A stretch of DNA of 64,000 nt, from sequence record PZ166176.1; one strand, given 5' to 3'. The stretch is from a phage. The notes beneath the pieces are model-generated. The model was not told the DNA's origin. It saw only the letters and a program-made list of their open reading frames with translations, and ran no database searches. The first letter of the stretch is position 1. Every line of letters starts with the position of its first letter. This document shows, one piece after another, positions 4,918-60,226 of this stretch. The position numbers and the translations under genes are program-made.

Positions 4918-5214
4918 ATGCCTAAACTAAAACGTGGTCGTGGAAGACCAACAGCCGAAATGCAACAGATCTACGCAATGGATGCGGCGCAAGCAAGTGT
5001 AAAAGAATTATTTGCAGAGCATTATTTAGAAGCTATGCGATATATTGTTGAACTTGTTAATGATAAGGATGCAGCAAAACCTCTCCGCTTCCAAGCAGCT
5101 AAAGCTATTAAAGAGCAAGTAGAAGAATGGTTAGAAGAACATTATGAAGCTATGGAAGAAGAAACCCCTGCCGTGCAGAATACAGATGACGTTCCTAAAA
5201 AGATCGTAATCTAA
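4918..5214 (+). CDS. hypothetical protein with AT-hook-like KRGRGRP motif (98 aa); small terminase subunit possible
   Basis: Strong RBS; own promoter and two downstream terminators; N-terminal PKLKRGRGRPT motif suggests DNA binding; lies upstream of the large terminase. Confidence 0.5.
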   Translation: MPKLKRGRGRPTAEMQQIYAMDAAQASVKELFAEHYLEAMRYIVELVNDKDAAKPLRFQAAKAIKEQVEEWLEEHYEAMEEETPAVQNTDDVPKKIVI

Positions 5215-5525: not shown

Positions 5526-5575
5526 CAACGCCCCTTCTCTTCCTAAAATAAAATTTTATGAGGAAGTAGAAGATA

Positions 5576-5968
5576 ATGAATCTAAAGACTAAAACTGTAT
5601 TAAGTTTTGTTTTAATTGTTGTTCTTATTCTTGCCGGAATGTTTGCTTATAACAAGATACGTGAGTCTGGCTACAAAGATGGTATTGCCTATCAAACGCA
5701 AGTATATCAAGCAGCCCAAGCAAAAGCAAAACAAGATTTCGATGTTCTTCAAAAAAGAGCGGATGAAGAAAGAGCATTATTAAATACTCAAATAAACAAC
5801 TTGTCTAAAAACAATGCACAATTAAAAGCAGATTTAGAGAAGAAGAAACAAACGATCAATGAGGATACAACGAATTATGCAAAAACTAATTCTGGCAGTA
5901 TGTCTTGCTTTGCCCCTAATGATGACGGGTTGTTCATCATCAACAAAAGTTTCCCCAGTTCTTATTGA
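5576..5968 (+). CDS. putative i-spanin (Rz-like): N-terminal transmembrane helix plus coiled coil
   Basis: GAGGAAG RBS; product begins with TM helix VLSFVLIVVLILAGMFAY followed by a Gln/Ala/Lys-rich coiled-coil region; overlaps a lipoprotein ORF in another frame. Confidence 0.45.
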   Translation: MNLKTKTVLSFVLIVVLILAGMFAYNKIRESGYKDGIAYQTQVYQAAQAKAKQDFDVLQKRADEERALLNTQINNLSKNNAQLKADLEKKKQTINEDTTNYAKTNSGSMSCFAPNDDGLFIINKSFPSSY

Positions 5969-8389: not shown

Positions 8390-9955
8390 GTGTCAACAGG
8401 AAAAAGAACGTACACTAAAAAGTCAGAATACTGGGACAAAGGTGCTGCAAATAAAGCTGCTCTCTCTCCAACAAAAGAGGCAGAGAAAGAGAAAACGTTA
8501 CTCCTGTCACCTGAAATAGGAACGATCGGATTAAACTCAATCAAAGCATTTACGAATTTCATGCAACCTTATGAGACTCGTTTCCCAGAATGTATTCGCA
8601 CTTTTAAAGAGATGGGTGAAGACCCTGATGTAGCTACTGCTCTTGACGCTACATATATCTTTGTAGATAGAGCATTCTTTGATTTCAAGATAAAATACAA
8701 TGTAAACTCGGCAAAGTCAAGAAAAGCTGCTAAGTTTATTGATTACATGTTGCGCAATATGCAAGCCCCTCTACGTCAATATGTTAGATCACTTTTGACA
8801 TATAAGCAATATGGTTTTGCATTCGCAGAGAAAGTTTATGAGTTGGATGAAGATCCTAAAAGTCCTTACTTTGGGTATTGGCGATTAACCAAACTGGCTT
8901 TTAGACCACAAGACACTCTTCACATGGCTCAACCTTTTACATATTCGGCAGACGGACGTTCTATTCTATCTGTTAACCAGAATATCACCAATACGATGTT
9001 AGCTCCAGGTAATACAACTTTAGAAACGGGTATTAAAGAAATCCCTTTCAGTAAAGTTTTATTTGTTGGTAGCAACATTACAGAGAATAATCCACTAGGA
9101 GTTAGTCCGCTTTTAGCTGTATATCGTAGCTGGCGTGAAAAATCTCTTATTCAGGAATTTGAGGTTATTGGGGTATCTAAAGATTTAGGCGGTATGCCAG
9201 TTCTTAAGGTTCCAAGTGACATTCTAAACAGGGCATCTTTAGATCCTGCTGGGGATGAAGCACAATCTCTTCGAGTTCTCCAAGCCAACATCGCTAACCT
9301 ACACTCTGGTGAACAAGCCTACATGGTATTGCCTTCAGACGTTTATGAAGGCACAGTGATGCGTCAATACGATCTTGTATTCCAAGGTGTTGATGGCACG
9401 GGTAAACAGTTTGACACTCAAGCACTAATCAAACAACGCAAGCTAGATATTTATAACCGCTTTGGTGCGGGTGTGTTGATTATGGGTGATGGTGATGCAG
9501 GAAGTTTTGCGCTTTCTGACAACAAACAAACACTATTGTCTCATTTTATTGAGCGAGATGTAGATATTGTTGTAGAAGCTATAAACTCTCAACTGATCCC
9601 TCAAACACTACGACTAAACAATATCTTCCTTTCTGATGAAGATATGCCTAAGTTTGTCAGTGGTGAAATGGGTGATCCTGATATTGAAGTAAATGCTAAA
9701 GCTATTCAGCAGTTGGTAGCCTCTGGTGCAATACCTTTAACCCCAGAAGTTATTAACGAGTTCCTTGAAAAAATTGGTTTTGAATATCGCATCCCTGATG
9801 ATATTGTTGCCAATAAAGAGAAATTCTTTGAATTCATGGATAACTATATGCCTGACAAAACTTCACGATCAGGAGATGGTTTAGCTACAGCGGGAACTGG
9901 AACGTCTGATACTGTTTCTGCTCTAGATCCTTCAGCACAAAACCTGTCGAATTAA
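8390..9955 (+). CDS. portal protein (521 aa)
   Basis: GTG start after GGAGG; size and position directly after the large terminase; called by synteny. Confidence 0.7.
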   Translation: MSTGKRTYTKKSEYWDKGAANKAALSPTKEAEKEKTLLLSPEIGTIGLNSIKAFTNFMQPYETRFPECIRTFKEMGEDPDVATALDATYIFVDRAFFDFKIKYNVNSAKSRKAAKFIDYMLRNMQAPLRQYVRSLLTYKQYGFAFAEKVYELDEDPKSPYFGYWRLTKLAFRPQDTLHMAQPFTYSADGRSILSVNQNITNTMLAPGNTTLETGIKEIPFSKVLFVGSNITENNPLGVSPLLAVYRSWREKSLIQEFEVIGVSKDLGGMPVLKVPSDILNRASLDPAGDEAQSLRVLQANIANLHSGEQAYMVLPSDVYEGTVMRQYDLVFQGVDGTGKQFDTQALIKQRKLDIYNRFGAGVLIMGDGDAGSFALSDNKQTLLSHFIERDVDIVVEAINSQLIPQTLRLNNIFLSDEDMPKFVSGEMGDPDIEVNAKAIQQLVASGAIPLTPEVINEFLEKIGFEYRIPDDIVANKEKFFEFMDNYMPDKTSRSGDGLATAGTGTSDTVSALDPSAQNLSN

Positions 9956-47122: not shown

Positions 47123-50100
47123 CTAGTGACAGGACGCCCAGGAATTACCCACATCATACCCAGCAGTAAGCTGAACATTAAGATTGTAAAATTCTCCAGC
47201 CTTAGTAACAGCTAAAGCAGCAAGTTCACCTGCCCGACTATAAGCTGTAAACCATCCACCTTTGGGAGATTCATGAATGTTAGCCCAAATTTGCCCTGTC
47301 TCTTTTTCCTTATTATGCTTCCATTCTTCGACTTTAGCAAGGCATTCTTTATCAATTTTCTTTTGTTCTTCAGGATCGTCTACTTTCTTCCAACCTAATG
47401 ATTCAGGTGAAAACCATTTAAATTCTACAAGGTTACGAGAAACTTCAAGCTGGGCTTCATCGTGATATGCAATCATTTGTTGCACGAAATCTTTATTCTT
47501 CCAGTCATCTTTAAAGAAGTCAACACTTAGCCCTTCTTCTTCGATCATGTCATCATAAATAACCATTGCACGTTTAGCACAGATAACCCCACCGCTTTGG
47601 AACAGAGAGTTAAGAATCGCGTGAGCAGAACGAGTAGGAACCTTACGACCGTCAATACCCAAAACATATTGTTTACCAGTCTTAACCCAGAAATCGTTTA
47701 AACGTTCTTTAAGACGCGCCAATGGGAATGCAGCTTCCCAGAAAGCATCGAACACCAATTGCCCTGTAAACTTGTCGCTACCAATTGTTTTAGCAACCTT
47801 GTCGGCTTGTGCACCATAGGTAATACCATACTTAACAGATTTAGCAGGACTACGTTCAAATTTACGTCCAATAGTTTCAGTGATACGTTTTGCCATCATT
47901 GTGTGAACATCATTAGGTTTCTCTAACAACAGAGCGTTACAATATTCGTGTGGCTCCGGCTCGTACCGCCAACAGTTTCCTGTGATGGTAATGCAGTCTT
48001 TCTGACGCATGACCCACGTACCAAGTTCTGTTTGTGGACACCAAACATCCTCTACACCCCACTCTTCAATAGTCAAACTTTGAACAGGAATGTGAGAGCG
48101 GTTAGTCAATGTTGCCACTTTTACTTTCTGCTCTTTTGTATTGAAAGCTACAGAGATATTGCCTCCATGCACCAGGTACGAGGCAGTTAAAGCTGCTTCA
48201 AAAAGTTCACCTGGGTTCTGCGCCCAACGCCAAACAGGTTTTTGTTTATGTTCGTGCCAGTAACCATCTGCAATCAAGAAACCTTCCAAGAAAGCTACAC
48301 GCTCGGCATGAGACATATTAACTACACGTTCTACCCACGGAACATCCCATTTACCTTGTTGAACAGAAGTTAAACTATTTACCTGATCTTGTTCCATGTT
48401 AAATGGAGCATTACAAATAATGTTATCTCCTGTGCAAAGCTCGGCAGTTGTTCTGACTTTAGGCACATAAGTATTCCCTTTACTACGGGTATTAACATAC
48501 CAACGGTGATCTGCTGTTGCACGGTAAGTGTGTGATTTCCCTTTAATCTCAAACGTCTTACTATTTTTATAGAAGACCTTACCTTTTACTTTAGTCCATT
48601 CTTTCAGACCTGTTTCAGCATTGTACCCTAAAATCTCATCCCCTTCCTTCAGGTCGTGATATCCTACCCAACCTTTACGAGTCAAAGCTTGAGCATCCAT
48701 CGGCACACAGTAATGCGATTCAATTTTTGCTTCCAAAGAGTCGAAGTCGTAGCCAATCTGGAAGTATTTAGGAACTTCTACACCAAACAAGTTACGCATC
48801 TCCCATCCAAACAAAGATGTGACACGAGGAATATTAGCTACAGATCTATGCTTCATACGAGAGGTTGCAGCATCACATGTAGCGGCTGGGGTAGGAATAC
48901 GCCCATCCGCCCTTACTGCGGCTAAGAAACCTTTATCGTATTCTTGATCTTCTTCATCTTCTTCCCAATCGGCACCGCCACCTAAAATAGAGTTCCTACG
49001 ATGCTTATACGTTAAGTATTCTACAATCTGTGTAGCATAAGGAAACTTCTCACCCAAAGCTTGCAGGTTAGGACAAATTTCTTTTTCCTGACCTTTGGTA
49101 AAACACGGGTTAGTCAATACTTTAAGACCGCGACCTTTACCTTTTGCTATACGCTCTTGAATCTTCCTTTCCAGGGTTTCCGGTGTGCACTCCAGATGAT
49201 CACAACGATCCTGACAAAAATTAGAAGATAGGGTTTGCTCAACGTAAGCTCGAATACCTTTCTGAAGTTCTTCCTCGCTCTTTTTAATTTTGGTGCCAGA
49301 TTTAAGCGTCAAGTCTTTATCTTTATATTCAGACGGTACCCAACCTAATCCTACGAGCCAGTTTTTAATATGGGTTGTATCGTTCAATGTTGCAGGGATG
49401 TTAGGATCACATAGAGGCTCATCTGCTGCAACTGGTAGTTTCCACTCTTTCCCCAACATAACTAACCACCAATCGCCATCCCTCTCTTCCAAATGACCAT
49501 CATGTTTCTTAGCAAAATTGATCATATGGTTAGTTGGCTCTAAGTTCTTTTTAATTTGCAACTTAGGTGGAATAAAAGCCTTAAGATAACCTTTTGTTGC
49601 TGGTTTAGGTGGCAAAATAGGCTCAACGAGTAAACGAAGACGCTCCATTTCTGCATCCAAAAAAGCAAGGTTCTCTTCTGCTTGCTTCATGTTAAAAGCA
49701 AACCCACGGTGTTCCTGGCGTGTAATAATGTCTGCTACACGTTGTTCAAGTTCAAACGGACCTTCCCATTTATCATAATCACCCCATTCTTCCATAAGGT
49801 AATTATATACGCTCGTATTGGCTTTGTTGTCATAGATACAGTAATAAAGCATGTCCGCAGCAAAAGTCTTAAATCGATCCTCTTCTGGAATCTCTTTACG
49901 GAAATCTATTTTTACATCACCACCTGCCTTTCGAGAAAGTGCTGCCAAACTATGTCCTGATTTGCCCTCAATCTTTCGATCTGGGTTTAACACTTTACTC
50001 AAAATCAAGGAGTCAATAAGTTTTACCTTATTTTTGCCCCACGTGTTATATTTAACACTGTAATCTAAGCCATAAAACAGTTTTGTAGCCAACCAGTCGT

Positions 50101-50455
50101 AGTTGATACCGTTGTGAGCCACAGCCATTTCAACCAGATATTCAGGCTTATCTTTAAAATAACCTTCATGATTAATAAAGTCTGGGAAATCTTTTAGTTG
50201 AAAATGTGTGTAATCTTGCGCCACATACTCTTTAAGAACATATGTGTATTTGCCATCTGACTCTTCATAAGGACGCCCATCAAAGATGTATTTAGGACCA
50301 TCGTGGAAAGCTACTATTTCTCCTGTTTCATGGTTCTCTAAGACAATACAGTGCATTTGAAATGTGTCTTTGAGACGATAAGGACTAGCTAAATAATCAA
50401 TAGTGTCATTATTCAACAATCCGTTTGCTTCAATATCCCATGTAAACTTACTCAC
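47123..50455 (-). CDS. family A DNA polymerase with 3'-5' exonuclease domain, interrupted by an intein
   Basis: Exo motif DIEANGL; motif A region GYDFDSLEAKIESHY; motif B ERSPAKSVKYGITYG; motif C HDEAQLEV; a 245-aa insertion separates motifs A and B. Confidence 0.85.
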   Translation of the reverse strand: MSKFTWDIEANGLLNNDTIDYLASPYRLKDTFQMHCIVLENHETGEIVAFHDGPKYIFDGRPYEESDGKYTYVLKEYVAQDYTHFQLKDFPDFINHEGYFKDKPEYLVEMAVAHNGINYDWLATKLFYGLDYSVKYNTWGKNKVKLIDSLILSKVLNPDRKIEGKSGHSLAALSRKAGGDVKIDFRKEIPEEDRFKTFAADMLYYCIYDNKANTSVYNYLMEEWGDYDKWEGPFELEQRVADIITRQEHRGFAFNMKQAEENLAFLDAEMERLRLLVEPILPPKPATKGYLKAFIPPKLQIKKNLEPTNHMINFAKKHDGHLEERDGDWWLVMLGKEWKLPVAADEPLCDPNIPATLNDTTHIKNWLVGLGWVPSEYKDKDLTLKSGTKIKKSEEELQKGIRAYVEQTLSSNFCQDRCDHLECTPETLERKIQERIAKGKGRGLKVLTNPCFTKGQEKEICPNLQALGEKFPYATQIVEYLTYKHRRNSILGGGADWEEDEEDQEYDKGFLAAVRADGRIPTPAATCDAATSRMKHRSVANIPRVTSLFGWEMRNLFGVEVPKYFQIGYDFDSLEAKIESHYCVPMDAQALTRKGWVGYHDLKEGDEILGYNAETGLKEWTKVKGKVFYKNSKTFEIKGKSHTYRATADHRWYVNTRSKGNTYVPKVRTTAELCTGDNIICNAPFNMEQDQVNSLTSVQQGKWDVPWVERVVNMSHAERVAFLEGFLIADGYWHEHKQKPVWRWAQNPGELFEAALTASYLVHGGNISVAFNTKEQKVKVATLTNRSHIPVQSLTIEEWGVEDVWCPQTELGTWVMRQKDCITITGNCWRYEPEPHEYCNALLLEKPNDVHTMMAKRITETIGRKFERSPAKSVKYGITYGAQADKVAKTIGSDKFTGQLVFDAFWEAAFPLARLKERLNDFWVKTGKQYVLGIDGRKVPTRSAHAILNSLFQSGGVICAKRAMVIYDDMIEEEGLSVDFFKDDWKNKDFVQQMIAYHDEAQLEVSRNLVEFKWFSPESLGWKKVDDPEEQKKIDKECLAKVEEWKHNKEKETGQIWANIHESPKGGWFTAYSRAGELAALAVTKAGEFYNLNVQLTAGYDVGNSWASCH
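47975..48709 (-). mobile_element. intein (about 245 aa) with LAGLIDADG-like motif, inserted after polymerase motif A
   Basis: Starts CVPMDAQALTRKGW, contains ERVAFLEGFLIADGYW, ends ...DCITITGN followed by Cys; the termini resemble those of the terminase intein. Confidence 0.6.
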
Positions 50456-51784: not shown

Positions 51785-53561
51785 AATAGTTGCTATCCGT
51801 AGGCAAATTAGCAGGATTGTTGAAATACTGCTCTTTGTCATGCAGAGTTGCAGTTCTAATGTCATAGTAAAACTGCCCTGCCGGACCAGTTTCCGAGAAC
51901 TCACGGTTTTTTAGGATAAAGCAATGAGTCGTATTGCGTTCTACAGGGTCTTCAGCGGCTTTATCTCGTTCCAAAGCCAAGGTAATACCAGCACCTTTAG
52001 CCAAGAAACTACTACCCATTGCATCGTCCTCTGTTAAGTGTTCATTGCCACCATTAGCCGATTTCTTAACGTGTGAGATGACGATAATAGTTATAGCATA
52101 CTCTTTCATGATGCGCTTCAACCATGTTGCTAACTCTTCCTGGGCTTGAACATCCATACCAGAAAGCAAATCAGAATAAGGGTCGATAACAAGAATTGTT
52201 ACTCCAAAATAGATGATCATCTCCAAAACTTTTTCTTTGATAGACTCCACATCTGCTCCACGATCATCACACACATAAAAACGTGGTGATCCATCTTCTC
52301 TTTCGTAAAAATCTAGGATTTTTTCTTTATTCTCTTCCAAGATTTGAAATTTCTCTTCCGGTGTTTTCCTGTGCAGAGGAATATGCAGGAACGAGGACAA
52401 CAGGTTACGAGAGTATTTCTTATAAGTTGCTTCCAAGGACAGAATGCCGAGGGTATGTTCTGGGTGCGCAACAATAATATGTTTTGTGATCTCGTTCACC
52501 ATCAAAGTTTTACCGATACTGGTCTTTGCTAGGATGACTGTAATCTCTTCCTCTACTAAACCACCACCCAGCATATTTGCAGCAACACGCATAAAAGGGG
52601 GCAAGGTAATCATCTTGGATTCCAAGCATTCTAATGCAGCTTCATACAAGACATTAGAAGCATAAACACCTGCTGGGGTGTATAGACGAGCACTCCAAAA
52701 AGCCTTTACGAAATCCTTTGCACGACCTTCTTCCAGATACTGATTGGCATCCTTAAGATCCATCTGCATACGGTAGACTTTGTTACGAGGTAGCACCTTA
52801 ACAATATTTTCAAATGCCTCATTACCTGCTTTGTCATTATCCATGCAAACAATAATCTTCTTAAATTTTTCAAAGAAAGGATATTGTGCCTGAACTTGTT
52901 TATACATACTGGTTTCACCAGTTGTGCCACTAACTACTGCTGGAAGTTCATATTTGTTGTCCAAGTTTTCAGACAGCATTTGATAAGCTGCCAGAGCATC
53001 GTGTTCACCACCTGTAATTACCACAGTATGAGAACGGTCTGCAAAACGAATTTGTCCAAAAAGATCTACATCTTTACCTACTTGACCAATAGGTTTACTG
53101 AAATCTTTAGGATGAATACGACGCTTAAAACCAACCAATTCTTTACCGATGGTAGTTGGATATAAACAACTTTCTACTACCATCTGATCCCCTTCCTGAC
53201 GGTATTCATAACGAACACCATAGAAAGATGAAACTTTTTCTTTAATGCCTCGATAACCACGTGGGTTGGCTGATGTTTCTTGAACAATTTTACGATGAAT
53301 CTGTTTATTAAATTCCGAACCCACAATCTCCTCCTCTTCTTCTAAAACTTCACCATTTTCTCGTAACCATTCTACGCTAGGAATAGTGTATTCACACGCA
53401 AAGCACTTAGCACCTTTATGCTCTCCATTAGAATCTAATCCATAAACCATCAGGTTATTACGAGAGCGATCCTTGCCATTTTTCATGCAGCGCGGACAAC
53501 CTGTATGCCCTTCCTTGCTAAGATCAACATCAAATCCATATTTAGTTATAATGTGCGACAC
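51783..53561 (-). CDS. bifunctional DNA primase-helicase (T7 gp4-like)
   Basis: N-terminal zinc finger (CPRC...CFAC), Toprim region (VVITGGEHD, IIVCMDNDKAG), helicase Walker A (AKTSIGKT) and Walker B (LVIDPYSDL). Confidence 0.8.
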   Translation of the reverse strand: MSHIITKYGFDVDLSKEGHTGCPRCMKNGKDRSRNNLMVYGLDSNGEHKGAKCFACEYTIPSVEWLRENGEVLEEEEEIVGSEFNKQIHRKIVQETSANPRGYRGIKEKVSSFYGVRYEYRQEGDQMVVESCLYPTTIGKELVGFKRRIHPKDFSKPIGQVGKDVDLFGQIRFADRSHTVVITGGEHDALAAYQMLSENLDNKYELPAVVSGTTGETSMYKQVQAQYPFFEKFKKIIVCMDNDKAGNEAFENIVKVLPRNKVYRMQMDLKDANQYLEEGRAKDFVKAFWSARLYTPAGVYASNVLYEAALECLESKMITLPPFMRVAANMLGGGLVEEEITVILAKTSIGKTLMVNEITKHIIVAHPEHTLGILSLEATYKKYSRNLLSSFLHIPLHRKTPEEKFQILEENKEKILDFYEREDGSPRFYVCDDRGADVESIKEKVLEMIIYFGVTILVIDPYSDLLSGMDVQAQEELATWLKRIMKEYAITIIVISHVKKSANGGNEHLTEDDAMGSSFLAKGAGITLALERDKAAEDPVERNTTHCFILKNREFSETGPAGQFYYDIRTATLHDKEQYFNNPANLPTDSNY

Positions 53562-53573
53562 TTTGTTCTCCTG

Positions 53574-53852
53574 TTAAAATGGTTCGTTAGTCTCCATCAT
53601 ATATTCTGCTTCTAGTTCTTCCATATGCTTTCTAAATTGGAAAGCAATTTCTGCTACAGTTACATTTAAATCTTTTTCAAAAACTTCTGTAGAGCCTTCA
53701 TAAAAACGAATACCGTCAATTAAAAGCCCTCCGTGGTAATCCCAATCACTTTCACGAGAAAGCGGGTTAGGCTCTTCATAATAGTAATCCACCTCCACAA
53801 CTAAGGCTTTCCCGTTACGAGTGGTGTATTCAAAATCAAAAGTGTTAATCAT
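53574..53852 (-). CDS. hypothetical protein (92 aa)
   Basis: ORF; acidic. Confidence 0.45.
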   Translation of the reverse strand: MINTFDFEYTTRNGKALVVEVDYYYEEPNPLSRESDWDYHGGLLIDGIRFYEGSTEVFEKDLNVTVAEIAFQFRKHMEELEAEYMMETNEPF

Positions 53853-54796
53853 TATAGCTCCTCAAATAAAAGTCTACGACGCTCATTCAACACATCAATG
53901 TGATAATGAGTCCTGACATACTTAGCTAATGCTAATCCTTTCTCCATGCAAACATCGGGAGCACTTAATAAGTATTCCGTAATATCTTTCCACTCGGAAG
54001 GTGTTTCAGCAAAGAATAACAAATCTTTAAACTCTTGTGTATGATAATTCTCACGAGGAGAACAGATCAAAGGTAAACCCTTAGCACCTGCCTCAAGAAT
54101 TTTAAGATTGCTTTTTGCATTATTAAACACGTTATCAATCAATGGCGCAAGACTGATTTGATGACCATCGTAAGATTCCATGTAGTTGGCATATGGTCTT
54201 ACACCTTCATAAACACAAGTTGGTGCTACATTTTCTCTGATTACAGACCATTCACGACTACTTAAAACTTCAGAATCCCTACGAAAACCACATATTGTAA
54301 GATCTTTACCAAAATCGGGCAAGATAGCCAAATCTTGTTTATGTGTTTCACTTCCAGCCCAGACTAATGGAGTTTTGGAGTAGCGATCACGGGTCAACAC
54401 AAATTGACCTTCATCATAAGGAAGTCCATTAGGGATTATGTGCACATTATCATTGTATTGTGAAAGTTCAACTTGCAAGGCAGGTGTCGTAGTTGTAACA
54501 AGATCACTGTGCTCTAAAAACCATTTTAAATGTTCACGAATACCTGATTCAAAAATACCTTCTAACATGTGTCCTTTTGGAATAACTAAAGAGTCATCCA
54601 AATCCATAACCATTTTAAAGCCTAGGTTTTTAAGGGCTAAAAAGCCCTCTTTACCTTTTGTTGGCACTCCGTTAAAAACGAAAACGTTGTATTTAGGTTG
54701 TGAAGAGAACTGCCTTGAGTAAGGCAGCACTACCCTATGGAAATCGCAGACACTATAATTGATTCCGTTACGATTGTCAAGAATTATTTGTCCCAT
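53852..54796 (-). CDS. glycosyltransferase-like protein (paralog 1)
   Basis: Paralogous to 54804-55751 (shared blocks VWAG, KSNLKILEAGAKGxPxxCS, VRTHY); the blocks resemble nucleotide-sugar-binding GT-B enzymes (inference). Confidence 0.4.
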   Translation of the reverse strand: MGQIILDNRNGINYSVCDFHRVVLPYSRQFSSQPKYNVFVFNGVPTKGKEGFLALKNLGFKMVMDLDDSLVIPKGHMLEGIFESGIREHLKWFLEHSDLVTTTTPALQVELSQYNDNVHIIPNGLPYDEGQFVLTRDRYSKTPLVWAGSETHKQDLAILPDFGKDLTICGFRRDSEVLSSREWSVIRENVAPTCVYEGVRPYANYMESYDGHQISLAPLIDNVFNNAKSNLKILEAGAKGLPLICSPRENYHTQEFKDLLFFAETPSEWKDITEYLLSAPDVCMEKGLALAKYVRTHYHIDVLNERRRLLFEEL

Positions 54797-54803
54797 ACTT
54801 CAC

Positions 54804-55751
54804 CTACAAACTTTCAATAACCTGGCGTCGCAACTCATTTGCATCTGCCAGATTATAATGTGTTCGAACATGTTCAGCCAAGAACAAGCCACGATCTTCC
54901 CGATAGTTTGGATTGCGAAGAAGCTTAACAATTTCGTAATGCCATTCTGCTTTGTTCTCTGCGTAAGCAACAGCACGAGCATCTACAGGGTTAAAATAAG
55001 GTAATACCTTAGAACAAACAATCGGAATACCCTTTGCTCCAGCTTCTAGGATTTTGAGATTACTTTTACAATTATTAAAATCATTATCTACCAAAGGAGC
55101 TATAGCAATAGCATGACTTTCGTAAACACTCATGTAATTATCTAAATCTTTTACAGCAGCTTTATATTTAGCATTTGGTAAATTTCTGCGAATCTTAATC
55201 CACTCTTGTCCCGTGATGCTCTGCGATGCTTCATATCCCGCAATAGTAAGAAGTTCATCATCGAAAGTATTAGAGACTAGTCGTAAATCGGGTTCGTGAC
55301 TAGCACCGCCAGCCCATACAACAGGGGTACCGGATGAACGATCATTTGACAAAGTGAATTGTCCACTATCAAAAGGAAGTGCATTTCGGATCACAACAAC
55401 ATTCCTATTTAAGTGACGGATCTTATATGCCAAGTATTCCGTAGTCACAATAACCACATCAGCAAGCTTAACCATAGCCACAATAGCATGAGTGTTTGAC
55501 TCGTATAAACTTGCTAAATAATGCTCTGGATTAAGTTGGTAAAAATCATCTAAATCTACAACAACCTTAACACCTTGACGTTTCAAAGATAAAACGTATT
55601 CTGCACCTTTAGAGTGGATACGGTTAAACACAACAATATCTTTCTTAGGTTGAAAATTATTGTTGTTAAATGGCATAACAATACGATGATAGTCACAACC
55701 GCTATGAGGTTTTGCATCAATTTTTAGTTTAGACCATTTTTTATTTGACAT
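54804..55751 (-). CDS. glycosyltransferase-like protein (paralog 2)
   Basis: Tandem paralog of 53852-54796 with the same conserved blocks. Confidence 0.4.
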   Translation of the reverse strand: MSNKKWSKLKIDAKPHSGCDYHRIVMPFNNNNFQPKKDIVVFNRIHSKGAEYVLSLKRQGVKVVVDLDDFYQLNPEHYLASLYESNTHAIVAMVKLADVVIVTTEYLAYKIRHLNRNVVVIRNALPFDSGQFTLSNDRSSGTPVVWAGGASHEPDLRLVSNTFDDELLTIAGYEASQSITGQEWIKIRRNLPNAKYKAAVKDLDNYMSVYESHAIAIAPLVDNDFNNCKSNLKILEAGAKGIPIVCSKVLPYFNPVDARAVAYAENKAEWHYEIVKLLRNPNYREDRGLFLAEHVRTHYNLADANELRRQVIESL

Positions 55752-56424
55752 GTGCTAGTGCCTCCTCATAGGAAATTCGGATTTTCCCATTTTTAATATC
55801 CTCTAAAGATGCTTTATATTCTTCCCAGTTAATCCCGATAGCAGCTTCTTTCTCTTCTTTTGTCAGATTAGCAAAAGGCATAGGGTTGTTTCCAAAAACA
55901 TCGTCTGGGTGGATATAAGCCATGATACGAAGTGGACAAGGTGTTGCCTGAATACCATGATTCAAACCAGCAGCTTTCAAACGGTGTCCCCATTCGGCAT
56001 CTTCAAAACCATAACCGTGAGTGTAAGGGCGGAAATAACCCATCTTCTCAACAACGGCACGAGAATACATTGCAAATTGACACATTGCAAGTTCCCAGAG
56101 AATAACTTCTCCTTTGCTTCCAACAACTTTATCTTTGAAGTACTCCGGCATACCAAAGAAATCCCATCCTCCAGAAACAGCTTGATCTACAAAGTATGTT
56201 TCCCATCCTTCCATGACTGGGTAGCAATCGTCGTCAAAAATAAACCAATAATCATAACCTTCTTCATAAAACTGGTGCATAAGTTCATTCCTGGCATAAG
56301 CTACACCTTTACGGTCTGGATCGTTGAATACTCGAAAATCTGCACGTGGATCTGTTACAAGGTAGTCTTTAAGTGGGCGGACACCTACAGTGATAACACC
56401 CACTCCGATTTTAATATTTTCCAT
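55741..56424 (-). CDS. putative GT-A-type glycosyltransferase (DxD motif)
   Basis: Motifs GVAYARNELM and WFIFDDDCYP are typical of family-2-like GT-A folds. Confidence 0.4.
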   Translation of the reverse strand: MENIKIGVGVITVGVRPLKDYLVTDPRADFRVFNDPDRKGVAYARNELMHQFYEEGYDYWFIFDDDCYPVMEGWETYFVDQAVSGGWDFFGMPEYFKDKVVGSKGEVILWELAMCQFAMYSRAVVEKMGYFRPYTHGYGFEDAEWGHRLKAAGLNHGIQATPCPLRIMAYIHPDDVFGNNPMPFANLTKEEKEAAIGINWEEYKASLEDIKNGKIRISYEEALAHVK

Positions 56425-56432
56425 TTTCTCTC

Positions 56433-56996
56433 CTAAATAGTTTTACTGTGATCGTGACAGTGTAATAAATGATGTATAGACCGTTGAGGATTTGTTTGAC
56501 CTAATCTGTAAATGTGAAACAGATACATTCCCCGCATCAATCCTAACCTCTTTCCTTTTTCATGTAAAGTGCGAGAGAAAATTAAGTCGAATTGGATAGA
56601 TTTTTCTTCGAAATGAATTTCATTCCACAATGATTTTCTAAAAAGCAAAAAGAAACCTGCCAAAGGTGTTCCGAAAGGAACTTCTTCAACACTCACTTTA
56701 TGATATTCTCTTGCAATCTTAGCATATTCTATATGGTTTAGAATATCTGGATCATCGTTAATTTGGTTAGAGAAAAGCTGATAACCACTGCCTAACCTGT
56801 TACAAGTTGCACCTATTACATCAAAAGGCGGGTTTGACATAACAAGCTCTTCAAGCATAGATGGTTGATCAGGTAGGAGGAACATTGTATCGGTATCTCT
56901 TAAACACACCCAACTATCATCTGGAAGAACGGCAATGGCTTCATTGATAGCCTTGCCGATATTTCCTGTCAGATAGGGAGTAATATAATAAATCAT
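56433..56996 (-). CDS. putative glycosyltransferase-like protein (weak)
   Basis: Acidic DTD motif (CLRDTDTMF) in an N-terminal Rossmann-like region; clustered with three other GT-like genes. Confidence 0.3.
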   Translation of the reverse strand: MIYYITPYLTGNIGKAINEAIAVLPDDSWVCLRDTDTMFLLPDQPSMLEELVMSNPPFDVIGATCNRLGSGYQLFSNQINDDPDILNHIEYAKIAREYHKVSVEEVPFGTPLAGFFLLFRKSLWNEIHFEEKSIQFDLIFSRTLHEKGKRLGLMRGMYLFHIYRLGQTNPQRSIHHLLHCHDHSKTI

Positions 56997-57012: not shown

Positions 57013-57204
57013 TTAACTGTCGGCTACAATCCCGCGTTTAATCATTTCCTGTTGGATTTGGATGACACGATCTCGTGCTTCCATGTATTCTTTAAAAGAT
57101 TCTTGAAGATGGTCACGAGCTACGTCTCGTAGCTTAATCAGCTTGTCGTTTGTCACTTCTTGAAGAGAGATTTCGCCAGTTTCATTGGTCCCAAGCGTTT
57201 TCAT
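57013..57204 (-). CDS. hypothetical protein (63 aa)
   Basis: ORF. Confidence 0.4.
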   Translation of the reverse strand: MKTLGTNETGEISLQEVTNDKLIKLRDVARDHLQESFKEYMEARDRVIQIQQEMIKRGIVADS

Positions 57205-58318: not shown

Positions 58319-58921
58319 TTATGGACATTCATACCATTCTTTTTTACCACCGAAGGCCATCACCACATCACAAATATCCAGACCAGCTTTACCTACACCA
58401 TATGCTTTCAGCTTCCATTCCCCATCTTCACGGACCAAGGAAGCCACGTGGCAGATTGTGTTGCCAGCTACTTCAGGAGCCAGGAAGTCAAAATCCAGAA
58501 TTTCCACATTGCGCTCGGAGTCGAAGATTTTAAGCATACCTTCAGAAGCATGACCAAAACGTTTCAGACCTGTATCATCATCAATGGTCAGAACAAAGGC
58601 AATCTCTTGTGCATCAGGAGAGATTTTAGCTAGAGTAATATCAATCTGCTCCATGCTGCCAGTTCCATCACGAACATCGTCACCAGCGAAGGTAGAACGT
58701 TCAGGATCAAACTTGTTAGCATAGCAAACCAGATGACGTGCAGACAGCATTTCAGGATTGCCAGCGGCATTGTGACGACAAACCAGTGCACTTACATCCA
58801 GATCCAGTTTAGAATCAGATTTCCAAGAGAATTCAAGGCGCAGTTCTTTCAGAGCCGGAGCAACTTTCTTCAGGGAAATTTTTTCGCTAGAGCCTTTTTT
58901 CAGGGAAATTTTATCAGTCAT
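58319..58921 (-). CDS. TerD-domain protein
   Basis: N-terminal KISLKKG repeats, DLDVSAL and later acidic segments characteristic of TerD-family proteins; 200 aa. Confidence 0.6.
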   Translation of the reverse strand: MTDKISLKKGSSEKISLKKVAPALKELRLEFSWKSDSKLDLDVSALVCRHNAAGNPEMLSARHLVCYANKFDPERSTFAGDDVRDGTGSMEQIDITLAKISPDAQEIAFVLTIDDDTGLKRFGHASEGMLKIFDSERNVEILDFDFLAPEVAGNTICHVASLVREDGEWKLKAYGVGKAGLDICDVVMAFGGKKEWYECP

Positions 58922-58936
58922 CTTTTGTCTCCTCTA

Positions 58937-59206
58937 TTATTTAAGTGTAATACCAGTTACAGTCAATTCTACTTCCAAAAGCTTAGATGTGTTTTGGATT
59001 GATACTAATTGTGCATGATGGTTTAGTTCTACAGCAGAACAATCATTTTCCCCATCATCTACTTTTAAATAAACAATGATTTCACTAAGGTCTAAACCAT
59101 TTTCGTCAAATGCATTTTCATAGACGAAAGTATCTCCTACATCCAAATCTTTAATGGTAAGGCATCGTTTATTTACTTTTTGCTCATCAATTTCGAAGTT
59201 TAACAC
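58937..59206 (-). CDS. small protein, paralog of 60228-60572
   Basis: Shares DLDVGxTF...NGLD...LEVELTVTGITLK blocks with the 114-aa protein on the other side of the vWA gene. Confidence 0.45.
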   Translation of the reverse strand: MLNFEIDEQKVNKRCLTIKDLDVGDTFVYENAFDENGLDLSEIIVYLKVDDGENDCSAVELNHHAQLVSIQNTSKLLEVELTVTGITLK

Positions 59207-59435
59207 TTCTTCCTCCTAATGTTATCTCCGGTTTGTATATACGAAGAATTATAGCATTTTCATTTTCTTTGTCAACCCATTCTTCATAATCGGGCCATAC
59301 ATGAATCTCTACTCTACTTACAATATCTTCCATTCGCACAGTCCCAATGAAATACTCTTTGAGACTGCGCATAATGAAAGCTTCTCTCTCGCGCCAATAA
59401 TTTTCTATGACTTGAGAGGCAAGCTCGTCGATCAT
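59187..59435 (-). CDS. hypothetical protein (82 aa)
   Basis: ORF between the TerD and vWA genes. Confidence 0.4.
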   Translation of the reverse strand: MIDELASQVIENYWREREAFIMRSLKEYFIGTVRMEDIVSRVEIHVWPDYEEWVDKENENAIILRIYKPEITLGGRSVKLRN

Positions 59436-60226
59436 TTTTTAGCACCTACTTTAACAACCCACTCTCCGAACTCTTCAGATAAGAGTTTGTCATAAAGCTC
59501 TGAATCTGTCAAGTCTAAATCTTTAATGCCAATAAAACCAACATTATCATAAGCATTTGCCAGTTCTTTCAGGAAGCCGAACTTCTCATTACCAACGCCA
59601 ACCATGAACCAATAAATAGGTTTATTCTTATTCTCTTCGATAAGACGACGAACAGCACTAGGATCACCATTCTCACCATCCGTCTGGAAGAATACAACAC
59701 CAGGGGTAACGTCAGCACCTGGTTCAGATACAGCTACAACTTTTTCACGCTCTACAGACACTGTTTCAGTTTTACCAAGCAGACGATTAAAGAAGCCTTT
59801 CTTTGGAGCCTCCTCTTGTACCACTTGTTTAGTGGTAATATATTTAGTAACAGTGCCAAAATACTCATCGTAGATATCCGCCATTACAGGGGCGTAATTT
59901 GTTCCACCTCCGATACGAACATTACGCATACATTTGCCAACATAGTCATCGTAAACATCTGCTGTTGCTGGAGTAAGCTCTTGGGAACTCGTATTGAAGG
60001 CCCACATATCAATTTGTTGATTATCGTCGAACAGCATACCAAAAGGAAGCAGTTTACCTACAAAATCACTCACTACCCCACTAGAATATAGACCATGCAT
60101 ACTACCAGAAATATCTAGAGCACATGCTACACGAAGAACAATCTTACCTTCATTCAGGTTCTTATTCTTTTTCAGAGAGAAAGCAAGGTTTTCTTGACGT
60201 TTTTTCAGGCTGATTTTCTCGGACAT
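59432..60226 (-). CDS. von Willebrand factor A domain protein (TerY-like)
   Basis: MIDAS motif ALDISGSM with downstream acidic residues; N-terminal KISLKK segment shared with the TerD gene. Confidence 0.55.
   Translation of the reverse strand: MSEKISLKKRQENLAFSLKKNKNLNEGKIVLRVACALDISGSMHGLYSSGVVSDFVGKLLPFGMLFDDNQQIDMWAFNTSSQELTPATADVYDDYVGKCMRNVRIGGGTNYAPVMADIYDEYFGTVTKYITTKQVVQEEAPKKGFFNRLLGKTETVSVEREKVVAVSEPGADVTPGVVFFQTDGENGDPSAVRRLIEENKNKPIYWFMVGVGNEKFGFLKELANAYDNVGFIGIKDLDLTDSELYDKLLSEEFGEWVVKVGAKK

Follow-up and report, generated by a model that had tools for sequence, protein, structure and literature searches.

We identified a mobile cassette of glycosyltransferase (GT) genes in a 64,000-nucleotide stretch of phage DNA (sequence record PZ166176.1; the window hereafter refers to this whole stretch). 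It consists of four contiguous open reading frames (ORFs) that follow the order ORF4, ORF3, ORF2 and ORF1 on the coding strand and encode two GT-A enzymes and a duplicated GT-B enzyme. The recognition of the ORF4-ORF3-GT-B set as a mobile unit is new in this analysis. We tentatively propose that the cassette is a protein O-glycosylation system that acts on virion proteins with a 6-deoxyhexose donor. A rhamnose-type chain on the proteins of the phage particle is more likely than one on its DNA, the target favoured in an earlier, sequence-only reading of the window. The phage belongs to Phapecoctavirus (phAPEC8-like), a group of E. coli phages, and its 3.8-kb GT region is 99.9% identical to that of ‘Acinetobacter phage’ ABPW7 and 98-99% identical to those of about 64 other Phapecoctavirus genomes, including phAPEC8. 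RefSeq labels the phAPEC8 counterparts, gp071-074, as glycosyltransferases, and the 2012 record of phi92 carries predicted labels for the orthologs (GT-B fold, TreT-like fold, polypeptide-GalNAc-transferase-like and generic GT fold); because these annotations already name glycosyltransferases, the cluster itself is not new.

All four genes are present on the minus strand, where the sequence-only reading had placed them (Table 1). They are tightly packed, abutting or overlapping one another, with an 11-nt overlap between ORF3 and ORF2. No minus-strand terminator-like site was found between the four ORFs in a 10.5-kb scan, in which the sole site of this kind was at position 52681, within the primase gene. 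Each protein matches a PHROG family labelled ‘glycosyltransferase’ with E-values from 9e-79 to 5.5e-149, and these are therefore genuine genes rather than chance ORFs. As judged from their sequences, the four GTs are soluble enzymes with intact catalytic motifs; no transmembrane-like segment was detected in any of them (maximum 19-residue Kyte-Doolittle hydropathy 0.76-1.65). None of the four matched an NCBIfam model, and searches of PDB chains with the individual proteins and with the profile of the GT-B family returned nothing meaningful, only designed repeat proteins and a thermosome fragment.

Table 1. The four glycosyltransferase genes of the cassette and the small backbone genes that mark its boundaries. 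Positions are those of the window.
Feature	Position	Strand	Length (aa)	Matches and remarks
ORF1, GT-B-like glycosyltransferase	53852-54796	minus	314	PHROG match, E = 5e-145; diverged tandem duplicate of ORF2
ORF2, GT-B-like glycosyltransferase	54804-55751	minus	315	phrog_7162, E = 5.5e-149
ORF3, GT2-like GT-A glycosyltransferase with DxD motif	55741-56424	minus	227	PHROG match, E = 9e-79
ORF4, compact GT-A glycosyltransferase	56433-56996	minus	187	PHROG match, E = 2.7e-112
Upstream boundary marker, small backbone ORF outside the cassette	57013-57204	minus		phrog_5932; PVP-SE1 homolog gp005 (5048-5170)
Downstream boundary marker, small backbone ORF outside the cassette	53574-53852	minus		phrog_4240; PVP-SE1 homolog gp007 (5533-5784)

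The enzyme classes suggested earlier hold for all four genes. ORF1 and ORF2 are GT-B-like tandem paralogs with 41% identity over 303 aa (E = 3e-77). Their common invariant block is KSNLKxLEAGAKG, and an alignment of 42 GT-B family sequences revealed invariant C19, H22 and R23 together with K229-S-N-L-K-x-L-E-A-G238, all of which are kept in both copies. ORF1 lies marginally above the Pfam cutoff for PF13524 (25.2 bits vs 25), ORF2 scores under the thresholds for Glyco_trans_1_2 (20.8 vs 25) and Glyco_trans_1_4 (22.8 vs 27), and many of the GT-B homologs bear precomputed matches to PF13524 or PF13692. Each copy shares 72-76% identity with its own phi92 ortholog and about 38% with the other paralog. 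Because the copies are closer to their phi92 orthologs than to each other, the duplication is older than the split between Phapecoctavirus and Justusliebigvirus. The single-copy GT-B proteins of prophages share 42-47% identity with ORF2 and 35-40% with ORF1.

ORF3 is a GT-A enzyme with a DxD motif, and ORF4, earlier regarded as a weaker candidate, is likewise a glycosyltransferase. The predicted structure of each is a single Rossmann-like α/β/α domain that superposes on solved GT-A enzymes. The DxD motif of ORF3 (F63-D64-D65-D66) is invariant across 17 sequences, and D34 and D36 of ORF4 are kept in at least 90% of 25 sequences. ORF3 scores 14.4 bits against PF00535 (threshold 23.3) and ORF4 has no Pfam match at all; since neither has an above-threshold GT-A match, the two represent divergent lineages that are recognised by fold and PHROG. 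No sequence relationship between ORF3 and ORF4 was detectable. Outside its own lineage, the phage relatives of ORF3 are confined to about 356 mycobacteriophage GTs; Che8 gp108 is among these, and its N-terminal GT-A domain shares 23% identity with ORF3 (E = 5.5e-4).

The gene neighbourhoods of the cassette in other genomes, which are dominated by head and terminase genes, favour protein or virion glycosylation, an option absent from the sequence-only reading. Our survey comprised 79 viral loci, of which 32 are closer relatives; among the latter, an ORF3 partner is found at 27 and an ORF4 partner at 22. In an Enterobacter huaxiensis prophage (locus L006), the genes are ordered Q antiterminator, lysis, ORF4-like, nucleoside diphosphate (NDP)-sugar enzyme, ORF3-like, GT-B, HNH, TerS, TerL and capsid, and the ORF4, ORF3 and GT-B homologs are 44%, 38% and 46% identical to those of the window, respectively. 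In a P. alliivorans prophage (L012), ORF4-like, ORF3-like and GT-B-like genes, without a sugar enzyme, directly follow the major capsid gene and precede the tail genes. ORF3-like/GT-B pairs are found in many further phages; those of P. silvicola and of two metagenomic phages precede the terminase. Four loci (L005, L006, L014 and L015) have the cassette in the late region, where it follows the Q antiterminator and the lysis genes and immediately precedes the terminase; expression from a late-operon position in temperate phages would be limited to the time shortly before lysis.

More distant homologs keep similar company. In Streptomyces phage Zuko, a GT and a dehydratase lie just ahead of the terminase, portal and capsid genes; in Cellulophaga phage phi12:1, the GT lies between the minor capsid gene and the protease and capsid genes; and in the podovirus ctQWt234 it lies just past the capsid gene. 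When 148 genes flanking 17 dereplicated loci were assigned to Pfam families, portal, TerL, prohead protease, capsid, head completion and tail tube proteins were the commonest, and none of the 25 highest-ranking families listed, out of 79, was a nucleotide-modification family. We also considered whether GT-B homologs filed under bacterial names reflect chromosomal polysaccharide loci and rejected this, as those inspected (Pseudomonas silvicola, P. alliivorans and Enterobacter huaxiensis) are prophages.

The GT-B family is essentially phage-borne: it was found on at least 581 viral contigs, whereas about 185,000 genomes of bacterial species yielded 20 loci. In Burkholderia dolosa (L104) and Trinickia (L106 and L108), GT-B forms a conserved triad, at about 3.6-9.9 kb of each locus, with an invasin/intimin-type inverse autotransporter and an uncharacterised protein of about 560 aa; ORF3 and ORF4 partners were lacking at the triad in all three species. 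By analogy, this arrangement suggests adhesin glycosylation in Burkholderiaceae, with the invasin as the presumed acceptor.

In the window, the cluster had been described as lying inside the replication module, co-oriented with the polymerase, methyltransferase and primase/helicase genes. The orientation is correct, and on the downstream side the description holds: 3' of ORF1 on the coding strand are a small ORF, the primase/helicase, a 143-aa ORF, the methyltransferase and the DNA polymerase. On the upstream side, however, it does not, for the neighbours there are the endolysin (PF07486) and TerD and vWA-TerF-like genes. The endolysin just upstream of the block echoes the lysis-then-cassette order of temperate phages. 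Immediately upstream of the endolysin and GT block are the TerD-domain and vWA-TerF-like genes (58319-60226 and beyond, minus strand). They belong to a set of stress genes resembling those for tellurite resistance, which the phAPEC8 and phi92 annotations also contain.

In phage PVP-SE1, the homologs of the two boundary genes (gp005 and gp007) are separated by a single 330-bp gene, and the primase/helicase and polymerase then follow in the same order. Relative to PVP-SE1, the 3.15-kb GT block is thus an insertion into a conserved replication backbone, and its location implies no replication role. Between Phapecoctavirus and phi92, the four GTs are 66-76% identical, the primase/helicase 70% and the endolysin 76%; the GTs are conserved like these genes and hence behave like a core function.

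A candidate source of the donor sugar is encoded in the same phages. In phAPEC8, RmlA-D of the pathway to deoxythymidine diphosphate (dTDP)-L-rhamnose all exceed their NCBIfam equivalog cutoffs (464.5 bits vs 360.65 for rmlA, 431.2 vs 365.1 for rmlB, 225 vs 155.75 for rmlC and 237.1 vs 224.05 for rmlD); the four genes are surrounded by genes of nucleotide metabolism and map outside the window, about 70 kb away from the GT block. Two separate counts matched 71 phage records for the rml block and 71 for the GT block. The genus is polymorphic: rmlB-rmlA-rmlC-rmlD is complete in 46 of the 71 records (phAPEC8: NC_020079 37131-40409, L002), and the remainder, including ESCO37 and ABPW7, carry rmlC and rmlD only (OP562383 32152-33554, L016). 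ABPW7, a phage of the second type, is the closest relative of the window over the queried 3.8 kb. Phages with rmlC and rmlD only would rely on host RffH/RffG or RmlA/RmlB for dTDP-4-keto-6-deoxyglucose, a pattern that fits a phage needing the end product, dTDP-L-rhamnose. A sugar enzyme recurs with the cassette; the one attached to it in L006, L025 and Zuko proved to be a divergent NDP-hexose 4,6-dehydratase, which again points to a 6-deoxyhexose.

Based on these observations, we propose that a phage-borne cassette of two GT-A enzymes and a duplicated GT-B enzyme was acquired horizontally, and that its products would act in the cytoplasm on proteins, most probably the structural (virion) proteins of the phage itself. 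The product would be a short O-linked glycan containing a 6-deoxyhexose, the donor of which would come from the phage's own rml genes. The host enzymes RffH/RffG of the enterobacterial-common-antigen pathway make dTDP-4-keto-6-deoxyglucose, and in the subgroup of the window RmlC and RmlD may turn it into dTDP-L-rhamnose. The enzyme classes, the make-up, mobility and neighbourhoods of the cassette and the presence of the sugar pathway are established by the analysis; we infer the acceptor, the identity of the sugar and the order of action. GT-B might, for example, initiate the chain and the GT-As extend it.

Several observations weigh against virion glycosylation. The structural matches of ORF3 and ORF4 are generic for GT-A, with polysaccharide GTs as numerous as protein GTs. 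The GT cluster shares its orientation, and probably its transcript, with replication genes and lies on the strand opposite to the structural module. Comparison of the window ORFs with the prophage loci that bear the cassette revealed no shared acceptor, the GTs and a tail-fibre collagen-like repeat being all that they have in common. The lysis/terminase junction and the post-capsid region are common insertion sites for morons too; the support from gene neighbourhoods, like all support for the acceptor, is circumstantial. The link to Che8 is weak, and it is to gp108 rather than to gp110, the enzyme named as essential. Finally, in the case of one distant relative of GT-B (L094), a borderline Tet_JBP dioxygenase is encoded two genes away, and DNA-directed members of the wider GT-B family may therefore exist.

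The main rival to virion glycosylation, close to the host surface polysaccharide named second in the sequence-only reading, is remodelling of the host envelope, in which the GTs and dTDP-rhamnose would, in the course of infection, build or modify an undecaprenyl-linked glycan such as the lipopolysaccharide core, an O-unit or enterobacterial common antigen. An rml pathway together with three or four GTs is the typical assembly line of an O-unit, the receptors of these phages are surface glycans (enterobacterial common antigen and outer-core glucose), and the RmlC/RmlD step would use dTDP-4-keto-6-deoxyglucose, which is also an intermediate of the enterobacterial-common-antigen pathway. Polysaccharide GTs, namely GlfT2, chondroitin polymerase, TarP/TarS and the rhamnosyltransferase RmlT, are among the top structural neighbours of the GT-A enzymes. 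Nevertheless, the cassette includes no flippase, polymerase, ligase or any other membrane protein, and the GTs themselves have no transmembrane segment. In temperate phages it occupies the late operon and not the position at the attachment site that is typical of O-antigen conversion genes. The family is, moreover, nearly absent from bacterial chromosomes, and its non-phage cases flank an adhesin rather than a polysaccharide locus. We therefore consider envelope remodelling unlikely, and similarly doubtful the effects that it might have, whether masking of receptors against superinfection or against the loss of progeny on debris, or the tying up of the lipid carrier.

It is less probable still that the cassette serves takeover or anti-defence by glycosylating a cytoplasmic protein or small molecule of the host, as in EarP-like rhamnosylation of a translation factor or the sugar-capping of a signalling nucleotide. 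EarP is a GT-B enzyme that carries out dTDP-rhamnose-dependent protein rhamnosylation, and this precedent, the solubility of the four enzymes and their probable early or middle co-transcription with replication genes would suit such a role. On the other hand, the presence of three or four different GTs argues for a chain of several sugars instead of one transfer, early takeover fits poorly with the place of the cassette beside head genes in the late operon of temperate phages, and no sequence-level match to EarP or to any solved GT was found.

Glycosylation of DNA bases, in which rhamnose or another sugar would be placed on a modified base to evade restriction or CRISPR, was the use suggested in the sequence-only reading, and Olsen et al. 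(2020) had suggested rhamnosylation of hydroxymethylated nucleotides as a speculation. The GT cluster adjoins the primase/helicase, methyltransferase and polymerase genes, and the rml genes lie among nucleotide-metabolism genes, both of which accord with it. However, since the position of the block reflects an insertion site, the habit of reading GT clusters near replication genes as DNA-glycosylating is probably misleading here. The proposed comparison with the T4 α- and β-glucosyltransferases gave no homology: hhalign probabilities were 1.0% (b-gt) and 1.4% (a-gt), phmmer and a PDB profile search were negative, and tblastn of a-gt and b-gt against the window and the phAPEC8 genome yielded nothing below E = 1. 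As observed earlier, the window has no base-hydroxymethylase, and the same holds for the entire genome of phAPEC8, which is near-identical. In tblastn against both, T4 gp42, the deoxycytidine monophosphate (dCMP) hydroxymethylase, yielded nothing below E = 1, and no hydroxymethylase of the ThyA family was detected in the phage genome.

The ‘thymidylate synthase’ of these phages was considered as a hydroxymethylase and rejected, being weakly ThyX-like rather than of the ThyA family and common to rV5 and PVP-SE1, which have no GTs. In phAPEC8, this ‘putative thymidylate synthase’ (NC_020079 45712-46710, 332 aa) scores 31 bits vs a ThyX cutoff of 87.9 and matches no ThyA model, which makes its annotated activity doubtful.

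The ORF3 family does show weak matches to DNA-directed enzymes. Its members match TAGT (PF20691) in 16 of 17 cases (best E = 1.1e-4), but ORF3 itself scores 19.3 bits vs a gathering threshold of 27.5, over about 37 residues round the DxD motif (model positions 53-90 of 205). The match of the ORF3 family to phrog_842, the family of the β-glucosyl-hydroxymethylcytosine α-glucosyltransferase (E = 7.5e-6), is also sub-threshold and confined to the DxD region. In a viral fold search, a TAGT protein appeared at rank 46 with a TM-score of 0.41. A TAGT identity for ORF3 was rejected on the basis of the sub-threshold score, the restriction to the DxD region and the low fold rank. No TET/JBP gene is annotated in phAPEC8, and a scan of the immediate neighbours, which covered only some of the ORFs in the genome, found none.

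A distant ‘solo’ GT-B subfamily of environmental phages (30-35% identity; loci L049-L095) is a different module and was left out of the evidence on cassette function. It consists of an unknown gene of about 171 aa, GT-B, a gene of about 160 aa and an unknown gene of about 195 aa; the gene of about 160 aa is probably the hexapeptide acyltransferase seen in 5 neighbours. It is in this subfamily that the borderline Tet_JBP dioxygenase (34.8 bits vs 34.9) lies two genes upstream of GT-B, at L094 (IMGVR_UViG_3300043466_000290, 8441-9232), and another solo locus has ThyX nearby.

Published data on the behaviour of the DNA of these phages speak against a protective base modification. In one phage collection, HincII cut everything except three T-even-type isolates, and all five Phapecoctavirus isolates were cut and typed by restriction fragment length polymorphism (PMC10269720). 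The phi92-like phages Bas60-62 of the BASEL collection, which have the orthologous four-gene cluster, were described as ‘exceptionally susceptible’ to restriction-modification systems ‘despite a putative dTDP glycosylation machinery’ (PMC8594841). Bas61 and Bas62 are also sensitive to defences that the authors reporting this suppose to sense unmodified DNA. In small temperate phages, the same cassette lies beside head genes with no base-modifying genes nearby. Neither rhamnosylated phage DNA nor any experiment on these GTs turned up in our literature searches. The glycosylation of hypermodified bases is thus unsupported and in our view improbable, and a sugar modification of DNA so sparse or so sequence-specific as to leave common restriction enzymes unblocked is at best a slight prospect.

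Two further observations concern the window and its relatives more generally. The DNA polymerase gene (47123-50455, minus strand) encodes 1110 aa vs 865 aa in phAPEC8, with flanks that are 100% identical, and the difference is a precise in-frame insertion of 245 aa (47975-48709, minus strand). The insertion begins with Cys, ends with Asn and is followed by Cys, and a LAGLIDADG-like block, LEGFLIADG, lies inside it; it thus shows the hallmarks of a putative intein. The phi92 polymerase aligns across the full 1110 aa with 83% identity, and the insertion is therefore present there too. In addition, near-identical coliphage genomes are deposited under unlikely hosts (Acinetobacter ABPW7, Campylobacter B15/A150, Pseudomonas PsgM04F and Klebsiella ZCKP1), and two ‘bacterial’ contigs of metagenome-assembled genomes (L100 and L110) are simply this phage.

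The sequence feature described here was already annotated and its enzyme folds are ordinary; its interest lies in what the cassette may do. Phapecoctavirus and phi92-like phages are repeatedly isolated for E. coli phage therapy and biocontrol. If their virions bear a phage-made glycan, then antibody recognition, clearance and stability would be affected, as has been shown for glycosylated mycobacteriophages. Virion glycosylation, if true, would also account for the retention of a rhamnose pathway by virulent coliphages, which was raised in print as a puzzle in 2020 and 2021. In its broadest form, the proposal is that Phapecoctavirus and Justusliebigvirus use a mobile phage protein O-glycosylation system to cover their virions with a rhamnose-type (6-deoxyhexose) glycan and that the same GT-B family glycosylates an invasin-type adhesin in Burkholderiaceae. 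We put this wider proposal forward with some reserve, as a possibility. We know of no earlier description of virion glycosylation in phages of Gram-negative bacteria, and this would be the first if true.

Compared with known systems, the cassette resembles the T4 α- and β-glucosyltransferases in having phage-encoded GT-B-type enzymes among replication genes, and differs from them in the lack of sequence or profile homology, in the lack of a dCMP hydroxymethylase and in the restriction sensitivity of the DNA of this phage group. With TAGT it has in common the GT-A fold, the DxD motif and the weak ORF3-family matches; unlike TAGT, it reaches a sub-gathering score over some 37 of 205 model positions, in a phage group whose representative phAPEC8 has no annotated TET/JBP gene. 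The GtrA/GtrB/GtrC system of O-antigen conversion is similar in that phage-encoded glycosylation alters a sugar structure relevant to adsorption. In contrast to the present soluble, late-operon-associated enzymes, here found in a virulent phage, Gtr proteins are integral to the membrane, encoded beside the attachment site and expressed in the lysogen, and none of the four GTs gave a Gtr-related match in Pfam or PHROG.

In the HMW1C and Aah/TibC systems, a soluble cytoplasmic GT is encoded directly beside the surface adhesin that it modifies. The GT-B family beside an invasin/intimin-type gene in three Burkholderiaceae species recalls these systems in gene arrangement, which makes the adhesin a plausible acceptor. 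The likeness to the capsid and fibril glycosylation of giant viruses (PBCV-1 A64R; Mimivirus R655/R699, with virus-encoded rhamnose synthesis) is at the level of fold only, as these are eukaryotic viruses that use uridine diphosphate-rhamnose and their genes have no relationship to the cassette in order or sequence.

The Che8 gp108-110/Corndog gp38 system of mycobacteriophage virion glycosylation offers a close parallel in organisation, with several soluble, phage-encoded GTs clustered in a tailed phage without DNA-modification partners, and ORF3 is distantly related to the N-terminal GT-A domain of Che8 gp108. According to two papers that cite Freeman et al. (2023), the Che8 capsid is glycosylated, gp108 lies within the GT gene cluster of that phage and gp110 is named as essential (PMC12363180, PMC11256854). 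The resemblance is weak and involves one of the four proteins; blastp of Che8 gp109 and gp110 against the four gave no significant match, and the present system differs in its distinct GT-B family, its Gram-negative hosts and its attached 6-deoxyhexose supply. Virion glycosylation has been demonstrated in Che8 and Corndog, whereas here it is deduced from the genes. By analogy, and as part of the same tentative proposal, the cassette may work like the Che8/Corndog and giant-virus capsid systems while belonging to neither family.

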